Shown piece by piece: positions 37,758 to 46,287 of a DNA stretch of 64,000 nt; within the stretch, counting starts at the first letter, position 1; the number at the start of each line of letters is the position of its first letter. Location of the stretch: NCBI GenBank assembly GCA_018304105.1, contig JAGVWX010000019.1, forward strand, positions 65,411 through 129,410, written 5' to 3'. The notes under the pieces were generated by a model. That model was not told where the DNA came from and searched no databases. It saw only the letters and a program-made list of their open reading frames with translations. This stretch comes from Candidatus Pacearchaeota archaeon (GTDB lineage Archaea; Nanobdellota; Nanobdellia; Pacearchaeales; GW2011-AR1). Made by a program: the position numbers and the translations under genes.

Positions 37758-38018
37758 ATGCTGACTGACGAAGAGAAAGCGCAGATAATGTTTAAATTGG
37801 CTCGTAAAGATAATCGGGGTGCTAAGTATGATAGGACAGAACATTTCAAAAGATTTCAGAGTCTTGATAGGGCAATTAAAGAACTTTCTAATTTAGGATG
37901 GCTGCTTGTTCATAAAAAATCTAAGTTTGTTGGCTTGTCTTTAAACACAGAACATAAAAGGGAGATTGTCGAGTTTATCGAGAAGAATATGTCTTATGTG
38001 AAGGGAATGATTAAGTGA
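37758..38018 (+). CDS. Hypothetical small protein
   Basis: ATG 37758 is about 25 nt after TATA catttaaaagtaa. Confidence 0.4.
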   Translation: MLTDEEKAQIMFKLARKDNRGAKYDRTEHFKRFQSLDRAIKELSNLGWLLVHKKSKFVGLSLNTEHKREIVEFIEKNMSYVKGMIK

Positions 38019-38047
38019 TTATCTTAAAAAATTTCTGCTGAGATAAA

Positions 38048-38450
38048 ATGATCCCGCTGGCTTCGAATCAAAGATTCTCGCTCGTTCGTCTGCTTACACA
38101 TCCAAACGAGGGATCTGAAGCCTAAACTTTTTAGAAAAAAGTTTTGGCGCATCAAAAACTATAATTGGATTTGCTTCGCAAATCTTGGTTTCCGTAGGAA
38201 CAAACAGCAGGATTATAATATTTCGCTTTGCTCAATATTATTAATGATCCCGCTAAGCAAAATTGCTTAGCAATTTTCCATTCGTTCGTCTGCTAAAGCA
38301 TCCAAACGAGGGATTTGAAATACAAACCCCTTTAGAAAAGGTGTTTCTATGAGTTCCCCAAACTACAATAGTCCGACAGGCTTGTCGGAAGTTCACAAGT
38401 CGCTCAGCGACTTAGTTGGGATTCTACGAATCCCAATATGATCCCGCTGG
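38048..38450 (-). repeat. Three direct copies of tRNA-Ile 3' terminus (atgatcccgct[gg]) at 38048, 38244, 38438
   Basis: Spacing 196 and 194 bp. The two non-tRNA units share the core tcgttcgtctgct....catccaaacgagggatytgaa (38083-38119, 38281-38320). Region packed with perfect 7-9 bp hairpins. Confidence 0.8.
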
Positions 38451-38513
38451 GATTTGAACCCAGGACCTCCGCCTTATCAGAGCGGCGCTCTAACCAGACT
38501 GAGCTACGGAATC
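38439..38513 (-). tRNA. tRNA-Ile (anticodon GAT)
   Basis: GATTCCG TA GCTC AGTCTGGTTA GAGC G CCGCT CTGATAA GGCGG AGGTC CTGGG TTCAAAT CCCAG CGGGATC A; full cloverleaf, no CCA. Confidence 0.95.
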
Positions 38514-38579
38514 GTTTAGCAAAGTGTGGTTAGCAAGACTCTTTCAAGAGCGCACTTAACCAGACTGAGCTATGGAATC
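38514..38579 (-). other. tRNA-Ile 5'-half-like leader element
   Basis: GATTCCATAGCTCAGTCTGGTTA (22/23 identical to the tRNA 5' end) + AGTGCG CTCT-TGAA-AGAG TCTTGCTAACCACAC TTTGCTAAAC. Confidence 0.85.
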
Positions 38580-38602
38580 ATGTTAATGAAAAAAGATAAG
38601 GC

Positions 38603-38610
38603 TTTTATAA
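38603..38610 (-). promoter_or_regulatory. TATA box (TTTATAAAA on minus strand)
   Basis: 24-31 nt upstream of the first nt of the leader copy (38579). Confidence 0.6.
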
Positions 38611-38630
38611 ACGTTTTCCTAAGGTAAAAA

Positions 38631-39068
38631 ATGGAAAATCGGCAATGGGTTATGAATGTTTTGGTTTTATTGACGGTAATTGAAGTTGTACTTATTGGTT
38701 TTTCATCTTATAAAACTGCCACTTCGACAGAAGGTTTTTGCGTTGTTGGCCAGGCAAATGGGGGATGCGATTCTGTGCAAAGTTCAGTTTATAGCGCTTT
38801 TCTTGGCGTGAAATTAAGTTATATGGGATTATTTTCTTTTTTAGTTTTGCTTGTTGTTTTAATTCGAGATATTAGAAAGAAAAGAATTTCTGATTTGTTT
38901 GTTGGTTTTGCTTTGGTTGGATTTTTGTTCTCTTCGTATCTGATTTACATTCAGCTTTTTGTGCTGAAGCAGATTTGCACGACGTGCATGATGGCTGATG
39001 GAATCGCAATATTAATTTTCTTTGTGAGTTTAATTGCGAGGAAGAAAGCGCCGTTGGTCTATCGGTAA
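38631..39068 (+). CDS. VKOR-family (vitamin K epoxide reductase-like) membrane thiol oxidoreductase
   Basis: 4 TM, loop Cys pair (CVVGQANGGC) and CTTC (CxxC) in a TM helix; last 21 nt overlap tRNA-Gly. Confidence 0.6.
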   Translation: MENRQWVMNVLVLLTVIEVVLIGFSSYKTATSTEGFCVVGQANGGCDSVQSSVYSAFLGVKLSYMGLFSFLVLLVVLIRDIRKKRISDLFVGFALVGFLFSSYLIYIQLFVLKQICTTCMMADGIAILIFFVSLIARKKAPLVYR

Positions 39069-39118
39069 GATTCGAGCTTCCCAAGCTCGCGTGGCGGGTT
39101 CGATTCCCGCACGGCGCA
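39048..39118 (+). tRNA. tRNA-Gly (anticodon CCC)
   Basis: GCGCCGT TG GTCT ATCGGTA AGAT T CGAGC TTCCCAA GCTCG CGTG GCGGG TTCGATT CCCGC ACGGCGC A. Confidence 0.9.
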
Positions 39119-44164: not shown

Positions 44165-44725
44165 CTCTGATGTAGTAGCTACTATTCGGTTCTAATTAAA
44201 TTTTACGGGAGGTGAAAATGGAAAAGGAACTGATAGTTAGCAGTGGTGCCGTCGGAGAAAGTAACTTTCACATTCAGCTGACACCAGCTTACCGAAGACC
44301 AATTTTTGAAAATGAGCAAACAGCTGAGTTGACGTTTGGTTACATTCTGGAAAAATTGTCTGAGCTAAAAGTTGTAATTGTCGCTTACAATTATGGGCCA
44401 GATCATTTGCATTTGTTTGTTGCAAATGTGAGATTTGTCAGCGAAGTAGAACTTGTCAGACAAATCAAAGGTTACAGCTCTTTCAAGATGCGAAGGCACT
44501 TTAGTTATCTTTTCGAAGATAAACTTTGGGGAGATAAGTTTTGGAGTGAGGGGCATTTCTATCGCAGCGTCGGTGCTGTGAACAAAGAGACGATGAAGCA
44601 CTACATCGAAGATTGTCAGGACAAGCATTGGGAAAAAATTGAAAGGCCAAAGTTTGTCGACTTATCTCAAAAGAGACTTGTTGATTTTTCGTCCTAAAAC
44701 GCTCGGGGCTTTAGCCCCGAGTAGT
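44165..44725 (+). mobile_element. IS200-like element or domesticated Y1 transposase locus (boundaries approximate)
   Basis: Perfect palindrome tagtagctacta (44173-44184) upstream and hairpin ctcggggc-ttta-gccccgag (44702-44721) downstream of tnpA. Confidence 0.55.
44212..44697 (+). CDS. tnpA: IS200/IS605-family Y1 (HUH) transposase TnpA
   Basis: DHLHLFV (HUH), IKGYSSFKMRRHF, FWSEGHFYRSVG...ETMKHYIE; probable ATG 44218 after RBS gggaggtg. Confidence 0.8.
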   Translation: MKMEKELIVSSGAVGESNFHIQLTPAYRRPIFENEQTAELTFGYILEKLSELKVVIVAYNYGPDHLHLFVANVRFVSEVELVRQIKGYSSFKMRRHFSYLFEDKLWGDKFWSEGHFYRSVGAVNKETMKHYIEDCQDKHWEKIERPKFVDLSQKRLVDFSS

Positions 44726-44968: not shown

Positions 44969-45517
44969 ATGATAAATTGGCACGAAATAGACAGAGAATT
45001 AATTGGAAGGGGCGTTGATGTTAATCGTATTGCTGATGCTTTAGGAAAACCTCTTGAACCAAGAATCAAACCTCTTGTTATGGCTTTGAATTATCGAGGT
45101 TATCATACTTGCGGGTCGTGTGAAGGCCATACTCTTGCCGAAAAAGAAAAAAGAATGGCTGACAAGGTTGCTTCTGGCGAGGCAAAACTTGTTTTTAGAG
45201 CGCCACGCGGTTTAACATACGAAAGGAAAACGCAAGGCGGAATAGTTTATCATGATACTTTTCATGAAAGCCCCTGGGCAGATTTTGATGTAATTAGCGA
45301 ATCGCAAGTAAGAAGATTTACAAGAGCATTGAATATACATAATGAAATTGATGAAGTCCAATGGAGTCATCATTTGTATAATCGTGGTAAAGAAATAAGT
45401 GCGAATCTCGTTAGCCCTGGTGAAGTGGTTCGCATGGAAACAGTCCCGAGATATTCTTTGTCAGTTATGCAAGCAAGTATCCCCCGATTTGCTGAGAATG
45501 TGATTAGGTTTGGTTAG
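44969..45517 (+). CDS. Hypothetical protein (orphan)
   Basis: 182 aa; CGSCEGH motif; converges on and overlaps the GGDEF gene by 4 nt. Confidence 0.45.
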   Translation: MINWHEIDRELIGRGVDVNRIADALGKPLEPRIKPLVMALNYRGYHTCGSCEGHTLAEKEKRMADKVASGEAKLVFRAPRGLTYERKTQGGIVYHDTFHESPWADFDVISESQVRRFTRALNIHNEIDEVQWSHHLYNRGKEISANLVSPGEVVRMETVPRYSLSVMQASIPRFAENVIRFG

Positions 45518-46059
45518 GTAATTTTCACGCAATTTCTTCCAGCCTTTTTTGCCTGATAAAGCGCGGCATCTGCACGCTTTGACATTCTTTCTAAATTGTC
45601 TTTTGGCTTGTATTCTGTGACGCCTAGCGAGATTGTAATCTTATATTTTTTGAGATAGCTTTCTGATAGGACAGATTTTCTCAGGCGCTCTGCGATGAGT
45701 CTTGCTCTTTGAGTTTTTGTGTTTGGAAGCATAATCAAGAATTCTTCGCCTCCAAATCTTGCGACTACGTCGTATTTTCTTACTTGGTGTTGGAGAAGCT
45801 GCGCGAGCTTGAGAAGTATTTTGTCGGCTTGCAAGTGACCGAAAGAGTCGTTTATTTTCTTGAAGAAGTCTATGTCAATAACAATAAGGGAGAGAGGTTT
45901 GCCTCTTCTGGCTTTGTCAAGTTCAAATGAGAAAACGTCTTTGAAGAATGAATGGTTGTATAAGCTGGTTTTCTCGTCGTGGGTTGCGATGTGATAGAGC
46001 TTGCTGACGTCTAAATTAATTTTGTCTAAAAGAGATTTTAAGGACGCTTCTTTTTTCAT
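45514..46059 (-). CDS. Stand-alone GGDEF-domain diguanylate cyclase
   Basis: TSLYNH.F, IDIDFFKKINDSFGH, RKYD (RxxD I-site) five residues before RFGGEEF, ADAALYQAKKAGRN. Confidence 0.85.
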   Translation of the reverse strand: MKKEASLKSLLDKINLDVSKLYHIATHDEKTSLYNHSFFKDVFSFELDKARRGKPLSLIVIDIDFFKKINDSFGHLQADKILLKLAQLLQHQVRKYDVVARFGGEEFLIMLPNTKTQRARLIAERLRKSVLSESYLKKYKITISLGVTEYKPKDNLERMSKRADAALYQAKKAGRNCVKIT

Positions 46060-46103
46060 GGTTTTAATTAGGTAACTTGGTTAATAAGTTTTTGGTAGGT
46101 AAT

Positions 46104-46111
46104 TTTAAAAA
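46104..46111 (+). promoter_or_regulatory. TATA box (TTTTAAAA)
   Basis: 24-31 nt upstream of the first nt of the leader copy (46135). Confidence 0.6.
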
Positions 46112-46134
46112 CACCTTTCTTGTTTTCTAAGTAT

Positions 46135-46212
46135 GGCCCCGTAGCTCAGTCTGGTTAAGTCCGCTCTCGGCAGAGAGTCTTGGAAACCACACCTCGCTAG
46201 GAATGCCATGAA
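46135..46212 (+). other. tRNA-Lys 5'-half-like leader element
   Basis: GGCCCCGTAGCTCAGTCTGGTTA (22/23 identical to the tRNA 5' end) + AGTCCG CTCTC-GGCA-GAGAG TCTTGGAAACCACAC CTCGCTAGGAATGCCATGAA. Confidence 0.85.
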
Positions 46213-46287
46213 GGCCCCGTAGCTCAGCCTGGTTAGAGCACTGGACTCTTAATCCAGGTGTCGCGGGTTCAATTCCCGTCGGGGCCG
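46213..46287 (+). tRNA. tRNA-Lys (anticodon CTT)
   Basis: GGCCCCG TA GCTC AGCCTGGTTA GAGC A CTGGA CTCTTAA TCCAG GTGTC GCGGG TTCAATT CCCGT CGGGGCC G. Confidence 0.95.

Follow-up and report, generated by a model that had tools for sequence, protein, structure and literature searches.

A tRNA leader cassette with a predicted bulge-helix-bulge hairpin in a DPANN archaeon

Two tRNA genes of a small DPANN archaeon, Candidatus Pacearchaeota archaeon (contig JAGVWX010000019.1 of assembly GCA_018304105.1), are preceded by a leader that begins with a dead copy of the tRNA's own first 23 bases. The copy is predicted to fold against an antisense box into a hairpin shaped like an archaeal intron-splicing signal. 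Relatives gain and lose this insert, and full-text literature searches returned no description of the arrangement. We studied a 64,000-nt stretch of the contig (the window), together with related loci designated below by L numbers. Our tentative reading, to which we give a probability of about 0.45, is an intron-like, probably selfish cassette.

Duplicated 5' halves upstream of tRNA-Lys and tRNA-Ile

The arrangement described in the initial annotation is real, and every element it listed is present. tRNA-Lys(CTT) and tRNA-Ile(GAT) are each preceded by a copy of their own nt 1–23, identical at 22 of 23 positions, then by a conserved hairpin and an AACCACAC box. At tRNA-Lys the copy is followed by AGTCCG-CTCTC-GGCA-GAGAG-TCTTGGAAACCACAC, and GTCTGGTT of the copy pairs 7/8 with AACCACAC. 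The features of the tRNA-Lys unit are as follows.

46103–46111 (+), TATA-like box TTTTAAAAA, 23 nt upstream of the copy
46135–46157 (+), pseudo 5' half GGCCCCGTAGCTCAGTCTGGTTA, a copy of tRNA-Lys nt 1–23 (T46150 versus C46228 in the tRNA) and the inferred start of the transcript
46149–46155 (+), 5' strand of outer helix h (GUCUGGU, the D-loop of the pseudo-half), pairing 6/7 with 46186–46192
46156–46185 (+), candidate bulge-helix-bulge (BHB) core: H UAAG (46156–59), bulge 1 UCC (46160–62), h' GCUCUC (46163–68), loop GGCA (46169–72), h' GAGAGU (46173–78), H CUUG (46179–82), bulge 2 GAA (46183–85)
46162–46184 (+), predicted 23-nt mini-intron, assuming cuts after the second nucleotide of each bulge (46161|46162 and 46184|46185)
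46186–46199 (+), antisense box: ACCACAC pairs with the pseudo D-loop and, after a 3x3 internal loop, GCUA (46196–99) pairs with UAGC (46142–45)
46200–46212 (+), variable spacer GGAATGCCATGAA, part of which can pair with the pseudo-acceptor strand
46213–46287 (+), tRNA-Lys(CTT), the functional gene (ARAGORN; Rfam tRNA model, 70.3 bits)

The tRNA-Ile unit has the same design on the opposite strand.

38603–38611 (-), TATA box TTTATAAAA
38557–38579 (-), pseudo 5' half of tRNA-Ile, 22/23 identical, with A7 instead of G7
38531–38558 (-), candidate BHB core: H UAAG, bulge 1 UGC, h' GCUCU, loop UGAA, h' AGAGU, H CUUG, bulge 2 CUA, with a predicted 21-nt mini-intron at 38552–38532
38514–38530 (-), antisense box ACCACAC (38530–38524), UUU, GCUA (38520–38517) and a 3-nt spacer AAC
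38439–38513 (-), tRNA-Ile(GAT), the functional gene

A third tRNA gene, tRNA-Gly(CCC) at 39048–39118, served as control and has no such leader. The sequence AGAGTCTTGNNAACCACAC occurs twice in the window against 0.10 expected, and 0 of 100 shuffles reached two. The 16-mer TAGCTCAGTCTGGTTA with up to three mismatches occurs five times against 0.36 expected; in these searches the plus-strand hit at 38517–38532 is the tRNA-Ile antisense box. An assembly artefact is excluded, because the same arrangement is present in independent ENA and JGI assemblies of the same organism. Groundwater and sediment samples carry this organism, for example ENA ERZ27254845, JGI 3300002502 and JGI 3300025121. In Rfam searches only the three tRNAs matched, and a permissive scan of 37950–38650 gave nothing credible.

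Related cassettes and empty sites

Four more cassettes occur in Woesearchaeota-type contigs, at tRNA-Ile of L019 and at tRNA-Tyr of L001, L012 and L020. The six thus share one architecture at three isoacceptors in at least five genomes. The repeats are 21–23 nt with their boundary fixed at A21|G22 in all six, the interval between them is 43–55 nt, and the spacer, 3–20 nt long, is not conserved. The antisense box changes with each D-loop (ACCACAC, CCAGAC, ACCCCUG, AUCGUGAGC), with several two-sided changes. The GTCTGGTT/AACCACAC pairing is real and co-varies with the D-loop across loci, and this is not a generic dispersed repeat, as the initial annotation had argued.

Orthologous genes in relatives lack the cassette. 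Cassette-free tRNA-Ile genes in L029, L030, L055 and L059 carry the identical promoter GTTTATAAAAGCCTTATCTTTTT directly in front of the tRNA, with tRNA +1 exactly where the copy sits in the window; the cassette is therefore an insertion that duplicated nt 1–21/23. tRNA-Lys in L019 and tRNA-Tyr in L033, L035, L037, L040, L043 and L049 also lack it. In a tree of the VKOR-family (vitamin K epoxide reductase) protein encoded between tRNA-Ile and tRNA-Gly, the window falls inside the cassette-free group, although this rests on one small protein.

The promoter geometry supports the earlier proposal that the primary transcript begins with the pseudo 5' half, as an inference. The gap from TATA to the copy is 22–23 nt in five of the six cassettes (L001 is less clear), the same as that from TATA to tRNA +1 in cassette-free genes, which is 22–25 nt in relatives. 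There is no TATA before the real start; at tRNA-Lys no TATA-like motif lies 15–35 nt upstream of it.

In the similarity searches, 8 of 9 genome hits and 8 of 11 metagenome hits were chance matches, as were pattern hits in IMG/VR. No similarity to phage or plasmid records was found, nor any copy away from a tRNA gene. L031/L032 tRNA-Tyr has a different 43-nt leader starting CCCCTCTAAC, in which we found no BHB. Pseudo-copies of tRNA 3' and 5' ends, 40–130 nt from tRNA genes, are frequent in this lineage.

Fit of the hairpin to a splicing-endonuclease substrate

What the initial annotation missed is that the small hairpin plus the enclosing pairing has the geometry of a BHB splicing motif, the substrate of the splicing endonuclease EndA. 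The hairpin fits the canonical hBHBh' form, with the copy's D-loop and the antisense box making the outer helix. All six cassettes have a 4-bp central helix H (UAAG/CUUG) between two 3-nt bulges on opposite strands (UCC, UGC or UUC, and GAA or CUA), a helix h' of 5–6 bp, and a helix h with 5–7 of its first 8 positions paired. The strand order h-H-B1-h' is that of the canonical introns of L012 tRNA-Tyr and L019 tRNA-Lys, from which the predicted cut positions were inferred. Our strict hBHBh' scanner found both window copies independently. Such hairpins arise by chance about 10 times per 128 kb of strand, giving a probability of roughly 0.4% for one to fall in a 55-nt leader.

The BHB conformer is 2.6 kcal/mol above the minimum free energy (MFE) at tRNA-Lys and 0.7–3.4 above it across the cassettes, whereas genuine canonical introns of the lineage are 1.3–1.8 above theirs. 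Two other registers have similar predicted energy. One, pairing UCC with GGA, is the predicted MFE and carries the only two-sided change in the core, C-G to G-C; the other, with a 3-bp central helix, is isoenergetic with the canonical one. Helix h co-varies with the D-loop and bulge and loop bases vary, but H and h' are invariant among the six, partly because our search patterns fixed those bases, so covariation says nothing about them and does not single out the BHB register. The lineage has splicing machinery, with canonical BHB introns in many tRNAs and an Archease gene in L029.

The copy is not an exon

The initial annotation's interpretation was only partly supported. Its intron model, in which the promoter-proximal copy is the real exon 1 and the 66–78 nt up to the second GGTTA form a D-loop intron, is very unlikely. 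In its favour, the copy sits where the tRNA starts in cassette-free orthologues, and deleting one repeat unit gives an intact tRNA sequence in four of the six cassettes. However, no BHB places its bulges at splice sites one repeat unit apart, which would join the copy to G22. Such sites would need a self-complementary 4-mer inside the repeat; only GGCC (1–4) and AGCU (9–12) qualify, and the flanking helices do not form. The only BHB-like motif would remove 21–23 nt within the leader, with the predicted junction UAAGUC|AACCACAC also inside it, so that no two exons are joined into a complete tRNA. In L012 the copy matches its own tRNA at only 11/21 positions and would give an acceptor helix of three Watson-Crick pairs, three G-U pairs and one mismatch, against 7/7 for the downstream half. 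In L020 the match is 17/21, and in the window's tRNA-Ile A7 would form an A-C mismatch with C66. By contrast the downstream 5' half in L012 and L020 pairs perfectly with the 3' acceptor strand, and the downstream half co-varies with that strand.

Further structural readings were rejected. Removal of the mini-intron does not create a second BHB, which rules out nested two-step splicing. There is no leader/trailer complementarity that would make a BHB at the acceptor stem, as in permuted tRNAs. The hairpin has no boxes and no tandem G-A pairs, against C/D box, H/ACA or K-turn readings. A degenerate second tRNA was discounted because a covariance model built from the cassettes matches real tRNAs only weakly, and only through nt 8–21. 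Simple tandem duplication does not apply, since the insert is unrelated to the upstream flank; L059 tRNA-Pro is different and is such a case. Ectopic CRISPR-like spacer insertion is contradicted by the same 'spacer' occurring at six loci with lengths varying from 43 to 55 nt.

A leader acting as a decoy, also proposed in the initial annotation, could work as a regulatory or chaperoning leader, in which the pseudo-acceptor strand competes with the real 5' strand for the 3' acceptor strand, giving two precursor folds and making maturation depend on EndA cleavage or on conditions. The two global folds are within about 1 kcal/mol of each other in three cassettes, and at tRNA-Ile copy and tRNA evolve in concert, with GATTCC(A/G) in the window and GATCGCG in L019 in both copy and tRNA. 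We consider this improbable, because identity is lost in L012 and L020 without loss of the cassette, A7 weakens the competing helix in the window's tRNA-Ile, and most orthologues do without the leader.

A mobile passenger, a scar or a small RNA

In our preferred reading, the feature is a 43–55 nt intron-like cassette in the 5' leader of certain tRNA genes of Woesearchaeota-type DPANN archaea. Transcription would still start from the original promoter at the original +1, now the first base of the pseudo 5' half. The D-loop part of the pseudo-half would pair with the cassette-borne antisense box, making an hBHBh' motif together with the conserved UAAG/CUUG and GCUCU/AGAGU helices and the two bulges. 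EndA would cut after the second base of each bulge and release 21–23 nt, an RtcB-type ligase would rejoin the flanks, and RNase P would cut at the real +1 and discard the rest of the leader. The downstream 5' half is the one under tRNA-type selection. Pseudo-acceptor and real-acceptor folds of young cassettes are within about 1 kcal/mol, so the copy is a real competitor, and the older copies (L012, L020) have lost acceptor complementarity; in this view, locking the pseudo-half into its own hairpin keeps it and the antisense box from interfering with folding of the real tRNA. We thus read the cassette as a mobile or formerly mobile passenger that RNA processing would make harmless. The duplicated halves, the empty sites, the tracking of each D-loop by its antisense box and the disqualification of the copy as an exon come directly from the sequences, whereas the start site, EndA cleavage, ligation and RNase P cleavage are all inferred, without transcript data.

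Several findings sit poorly with this reading. Splicing would not restore any known RNA, and so has no obvious benefit if RNase P removes the leader anyway. No transposition or integration mechanism explains a fixed 21–23 nt target duplication together with a tRNA-specific antisense box. L030 tRNA-Ser has the same pseudo-end plus antisense design without a BHB core, so the BHB may not be the essential part. L012 and L020 share 53/56 leader bases, including loop, bulges and the pseudo-acceptor strand, although spacer, promoter flank and real tRNA 5' parts (16/25) have diverged and flanking proteins are 63% identical; this fits a sequence-specific function, or recent transfer, better than a decaying passenger.

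That last comparison favours an unlikely but possible alternative, a dedicated small-RNA gene riding on a tRNA promoter. The product would be the 27-nt pseudo 5' half ending in a 2',3'-cyclic phosphate, the excised 21–23 nt hairpin, possibly circular, or the spliced leader hairpin with its 7-nt loop UAAGUNA; RNase P would define the 3' end. The most conserved bases lie in the piece that EndA would release, and the leader tends to fold as a closed, independent domain. Against this, the distribution is patchy, the cassette being absent from most orthologous loci and from the nearest relatives; we found no target, partner protein or Rfam family; the conservation of H and h' is partly an ascertainment effect; and L012 and L020 are a single comparison that could reflect lateral transfer. 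More speculatively, the cassette could be a genetically hard-wired small-RNA generator, whereby the cell would use EndA at the start of a strongly expressed tRNA transcript to release a tRNA-5'-fragment-like 27-mer, the hairpin RNA, or both, with a function of their own. The broader pattern of pseudo-ends plus antisense boxes at both ends of tRNA genes in these archaea might then reflect a still undescribed RNA-based or recombination-based system.

The initial annotation's other suggestion, the scar of a tRNA-targeting element, is partly supported but as a full explanation remains doubtful. In this view an integrative element using the tRNA 5' end through the D-loop as attachment site left a direct repeat plus its terminal sequences, the hairpin and inverted repeat are recombinase-site remnants, and the BHB-like shape is coincidental. 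Direct repeats of a tRNA end flanking an insert, with empty sites in relatives, are the classic signature described for the Caldiarchaeum tRNA-Thr fragment and for SSV1/pNOB8 att sites (PMC3293823); the fixed repeat boundary and the frequent pseudo-copies of tRNA ends are also consistent. But the interval between the repeats is a conserved unit with no ORF, integrase or element genes, the same junctions occur at all six loci, which random decay of a large element would not give, the antisense box tracks each D-loop, no similarity to phage, plasmid or IMG/VR sequences was found, and exact BHB geometry by chance has a probability of about 0.004. An IS200/IS605 or REP-type hairpin element, of which many dispersed copies mobilised by a Y1 (single-tyrosine HUH-type) transposase and no long target duplication would be expected, was rejected: a Y1_Tnp ORF lies 1.4 kb away, yet the cassette occurs only twice in 64 kb, both times at tRNA genes, and nowhere else in 320 kb of related DNA, and it has 21–23 nt target repeats.

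Comparison with known systems

Archaeal BHB introns and processing sites cut by EndA (tRNA introns, rRNA processing stems, permuted RNAs) share the two 3-nt bulges on opposite strands, 4 bp apart and flanked by helices, and the predicted excised piece is the size of small tRNA introns (15–18 nt in relatives). DPANN EndAs are reported to accompany many disrupted tRNA genes. Here, however, the motif lies in the 5' leader, its outer helix is built from a pseudo D-loop plus an antisense box rather than from a tRNA stem, and the predicted splicing would not create a functional RNA junction.

tRNA fragments left as direct repeats by integrative elements likewise place a promoter-side fragment of the tRNA 5' end in direct repeat with the intact gene and vary in presence among close relatives, and such events have been linked to intron gain (PMC3293823). 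Known cases have a kb-sized element with a recombinase gene between the repeats, whereas here the short interval is conserved across three tRNA species and contains an antisense box and a BHB-like hairpin. Transposed non-canonical tRNA introns of Thermoproteales (Fujishima et al. 2010) reportedly show near-identical intron-like sequence at different tRNA genes with sporadic distribution, and in the present lineage canonical introns of tRNA-Tyr and tRNA-Asp also share modules. The Thermoproteales introns interrupt the tRNA body, must be spliced for function and are not known to be accompanied by exon duplication.

In split and permuted tRNA genes (Nanoarchaeum equitans, Caldivirga, Thermofilum; PMC3218864), a separate tRNA 5' piece is followed by sequence that pairs to build a BHB, also in a DPANN or otherwise disrupted-tRNA context. 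Here a complete, colinear tRNA follows each cassette, the BHB is closed in cis by a hairpin loop, and the 5' piece is redundant. In the near-leaderless tRNA transcription of N. equitans promoter spacing is fixed; the tRNA genes here also have their own TATA box 22–25 nt from +1, which is why the copy inherits the start site, but cassette-bearing genes have 66–78 nt leaders and would need a 5' processing activity.

Such leaders can mislead tRNA gene finders and automatic annotation of DPANN genomes, for which incomplete tRNA sets have been reported. If the motif is cleaved, this would be, to our knowledge, the first BHB 'intron' that lies in a tRNA leader and is built on a duplicated tRNA 5' end, extending the known substrates of the archaeal splicing endonuclease. 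The cassette also captures tRNA-gene disruption in progress, with filled and empty sites in related genomes and copies ranging from young (identical to the tRNA) to old (diverged), which bears on how tRNA introns, split tRNAs and tRNA fragments arise.

Duplicated tRNA 5' ends upstream of two tRNA genes

The features on which the analysis rests are as follows.

38439-38513, minus strand: tRNA-Ile(GAT)
38557-38579, minus strand: copy of the tRNA-Ile 5' end, 22/23 identical, with A7 for G7
38603-38611, minus strand: TATA-like box of tRNA-Ile
39048-39118, plus strand: tRNA-Gly(CCC)
46103-46111, plus strand: TATA-like box of tRNA-Lys
46135-46157, plus strand: copy of the tRNA-Lys 5' end, repeating 22 of its first 23 nt
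46213-46287, plus strand: tRNA-Lys(CTT)

The window has these three tRNA genes. The tRNA-Lys copy is followed by AGTCCGCTCTCGGCAGAGAGTCTTGGAAACCACAC, then CTCGCTA, then a 13-nt spacer. The tRNA-Ile gene has the same layout on the other strand, with the acceptor bases switched to its own sequence, while tRNA-Gly has nothing of the kind. The shared box and the shared 16-mer are far above chance, and the same arrangement appears in independent assemblies of the same organism. The initial annotation, which had described a copy of the tRNA's own 5' half fused to a conserved hairpin and box, was thus correct in what it observed. One plus-strand match to the shared 16-mer showed that the AACCACAC box, together with the following YTYGCTA, is an imperfect reverse complement of TAGCTCAGTCTGGTTA; the leader is therefore one long hairpin.

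Two neighboring genes were noted at the tRNA-Lys locus. An ORF with a Y1 transposase domain (Pfam Y1_Tnp; IS200/IS605 TnpA type) at 44212-44697 (plus strand) lies 1.4 kb upstream of the cassette, and is absent from the corresponding region of the related contig L029. A 181-aa GGDEF-domain protein with a weak Cas10 palm-like hit, encoded at 45514-46059 (minus strand), lies directly upstream of the tRNA-Lys promoter; this is an unusual gene for a small DPANN genome.

Inferred start of transcription

At both window loci the TATA-like box ends 23 nt before the copy. Across related contigs (denoted by L numbers) the gap is 22-23 nt to the copy in cassette-bearing genes (five of six; L001 is less clear) and mostly 22-25 nt to tRNA +1 in cassette-free genes, and no TATA-like motif precedes the real tRNA start when a cassette is present. 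Cassette-free orthologs of tRNA-Ile (in L029, L030, L055 and L059) carry the identical promoter GTTTATAAAAGCCTTATCTTTTT, and their tRNA +1 sits exactly where the copy sits in the window. The copy therefore occupies the ancestral tRNA start, and the transcript should begin with it, an inference made from sequence alone.

A family of cassettes

We searched for more examples with one pattern scan of representative genomes and one of metagenomes. These gave four more true members: L001 (a Woesearchaeota MAG, tRNA-Tyr), L012 and L020 (both tRNA-Tyr), and L019 (tRNA-Ile, syntenic with the window). The other hits were chance. All six cassettes share one layout, running from a pseudo 5' half (nt 1-21/23) through AGUNCGCUCU-loop-AGAGUCUUGNN, an antisense box and a variable 3-20 nt spacer to the complete tRNA. 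The search patterns fixed the two inner helices, so that diverged members would have been missed and the invariance of those helices is uninformative. A covariance model built from the six found no further copy in 320 kb of window and related DNA.

The hairpin fits bulge-helix-bulge geometry

Reading outward from the loop, the hairpin in this conformation consists of helix h' (GCUCU/AGAGU, 5-6 bp), a 3-nt bulge on the 5' strand (UCC, UGC or UUC), helix H (UAAG/CUUG, 4 bp), a 3-nt bulge on the 3' strand (GAA or CUA), and helix h, in which the pseudo D-loop pairs with the antisense box. The strand order is that of canonical pre-tRNA introns. We checked this on the canonical introns of L012 tRNA-Tyr and L019 tRNA-Lys, where the anticodon stem is h, nt 32-35 form H, and nt 36, 37 plus the first intron base form bulge 1. 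Cuts after the second base of each bulge would remove 46162-46184 (23 nt) at tRNA-Lys and 38552-38532 (21 nt) at tRNA-Ile, and would leave a hairpin with a 7-nt loop, UAAGUNA. A strict hBHBh' scanner picked up both window copies. It finds about 10 such motifs per 128 kb of strand, in real and in shuffled sequence alike, and the chance of one falling in a given 55-nt leader is therefore about 0.4%.

The outer helix h co-varies with the D-loop, and several of the changes are two-sided.

Pairing of the pseudo D-loop with the antisense box (locus; D-loop strand; antisense box)
Window Lys and Ile; GUCUGGU; ACCACAC
L019 Ile; GUCCGG; CCAGAC
L012, L020 Tyr; CAGUGGU; ACCCCUG
L001 Tyr; GCUCA(A)CGGU; AUCGUGAGC

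Several points limit the BHB reading. H and h' do not vary among the six. The predicted MFE uses a different register, in which UCC pairs with GGA, and that register carries the only two-sided change in the core. A register with a 3-bp central helix is isoenergetic with the canonical one. The BHB conformer lies 0.7-3.4 kcal/mol above the MFE, but genuine canonical introns of the lineage lie 1.3-1.8 above theirs, so this gap does not disqualify it.

The copy is not an exon

In four cassettes the copy is identical or nearly identical to the tRNA (21/21, 22/22, 22/23 and 22/23), but in L012 it is only 11/21 identical and in L020 17/21. The L012 copy would form an acceptor helix of 3 Watson-Crick pairs, 3 G-U pairs and 1 mismatch, whereas the downstream half pairs 7/7. 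In the window's Ile the copy's A7 faces C66. No BHB has its bulges one repeat unit apart. The downstream half is therefore the functional one, and a 5' processing activity, presumably RNase P, must act at the real +1. The interpretation in the initial annotation is thus only partly supported: a transcript beginning with the copy is favored, though inferred, but the suggestion of a D-loop intron with a second exon-1 copy is not supported.

In young cassettes the predicted fold with the copy in the acceptor stem and that with the real 5' strand differ by only about 1 kcal/mol, making the copy a real competitor. Decay of acceptor complementarity in L012, L020 and the window's Ile fits selection against that competition. 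Two further differences point the same way. The window's Lys copy has U16 where the tRNA has C16, which improves pairing with the antisense box, and the real tRNA of L012 can no longer pair with the box (-1.4 against -9.3 kcal/mol for the copy).

Gain and loss

Distribution of the cassette among the loci compared (tRNA; present; absent)
Ile; window, L019; L029, L030, L055, L059
Lys; window; L019 (has a canonical intron instead)
Tyr; L001, L012, L020; L033, L035, L037/38, L040, L043, L049

The tRNA-Tyr of L031 and L032 has a different 43-nt leader (L031:12264-12307), which starts with CCCCTCTAAC, resembling the acceptor strand, and contains CCACAC and a CAGAG box antisense to the acceptor; it may be a degenerate or unrelated cassette.

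A tree of the VKOR-family (vitamin K epoxide reductase) protein encoded between tRNA-Ile and tRNA-Gly places the window inside the cassette-free group, with L019 outside. This is weak evidence, from one small protein, but implies at least two gains or several losses. Recombination between the direct repeats would restore an intact gene under the same promoter, so loss should be easy. L012 and L020 are sisters, at 63% identity over two flanking proteins. They share 53/56 leader bases, while spacer, promoter flank and tRNA 5' part (16/25) have diverged. This means either strong constraint or lateral transfer.

Interpretation and relation to known systems

Our preferred explanation, held tentatively (probability about 0.45), is an intron-like cassette, polymorphic for gain and loss, that duplicated the tRNA start, is transcribed as the leader, folds into an EndA-type motif, and would be removed by EndA and RNase P. 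The analysis itself establishes the anatomy, the empty sites, the promoter spacing and the non-exon status of the copy, whereas the start site, both processing steps, mobility and harmlessness are inferred. The main rival explanations are a small-RNA precursor, a pure recombination scar and a folding decoy.

Rfam has no matching family, and searches of phage, plasmid and IMG/VR collections found nothing similar. The closest published cases are BHB introns and processing sites, and tRNA 5' fragments left by integrative elements with linked intron gain (PMC3293823). Split and permuted tRNAs are also close (PMC3218864), as is the link between DPANN EndA variants and disrupted tRNA genes (PMC5829648). 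None of these describes a BHB borne in a leader and built on a duplicated 5' end, nor did full-text literature searches find one.

Pseudo-copies of tRNA ends and shared intron modules in the lineage

Pseudo-copies of tRNA ends are common in this lineage. Many of its tRNA genes are followed 40-130 nt downstream by a copy of their own last 17-23 nt. In five cases there is at most 1 mismatch in the 17 nt compared; the sixth, L033 Gly(GCC), has 3.

L019:11553-11620: 3'-end repeat
L055, downstream of 2481, minus strand: 3'-end repeat
L059, downstream of 354, minus strand: 3'-end repeat
L059, downstream of 2282, plus strand: 3'-end repeat
L029, downstream of 10486: 3'-end repeat
L033, downstream of 1483: 3'-end repeat with 3 mismatches

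The trailer of L019 tRNA-Ile also carries GGATTTGAACC, antisense to the T-loop, which mirrors the 5' cassette design. In the window, the 420-nt region downstream of tRNA-Ile (38438-38270, minus strand) holds three consecutive hairpins and then a degenerate T-loop-like TTTCAAATCCC, followed by the motif TTTGGATGCTTTAGCAGACGAACGA, which recurs in the trailers of L055 tRNA-Ile and L030 tRNA-Ser; the region has no Rfam match.

Repeats of 5' ends were found beyond the six cassettes. In L030:7510-7669, tRNA-Ser(GGA) has a TATA box, then about 22 nt later a 14-nt copy of its own 5' end, then a 30-nt insert with an antisense box (GCACCACG, pairing 7/8 with CGTGGCGC), and then the real tRNA. This is the same design without a BHB core. 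In L059:2098-2216, tRNA-Pro(CGG) is preceded by a 28-nt repeat (27/28 identical) made of upstream flank plus tRNA nt 1-9, with the TATA box between the two copies and a third partial 5'-end-like fragment (CGGGATCGTGTAG). In L029:17100-17325, tRNA-Lys is inverted at the contig end and a fragment of its 3' end (GGCCCCGAC) lies about 190 nt away, suggesting rearrangement or integration at this tRNA.

Long canonical introns of tRNA-Tyr and tRNA-Asp share a module, ATGTAAGGAACCAAGGTTCCTTGACA...CCTCCTTT, across isoacceptors (L035:13087-13298, L031:17769-17905 and L033:18602-18765; also Tyr introns of L001, L020, L031, L037, L040 and L043), and the Tyr introns also share GGTGGAGATTC...ATGAAAC. This suggests intron exchange between tRNA genes and possibly an intron-encoded small RNA. 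An Archease gene is present in L029. The lineage therefore has active tRNA-end rearrangement and the splicing/ligation machinery, together with what appears to be intron exchange.
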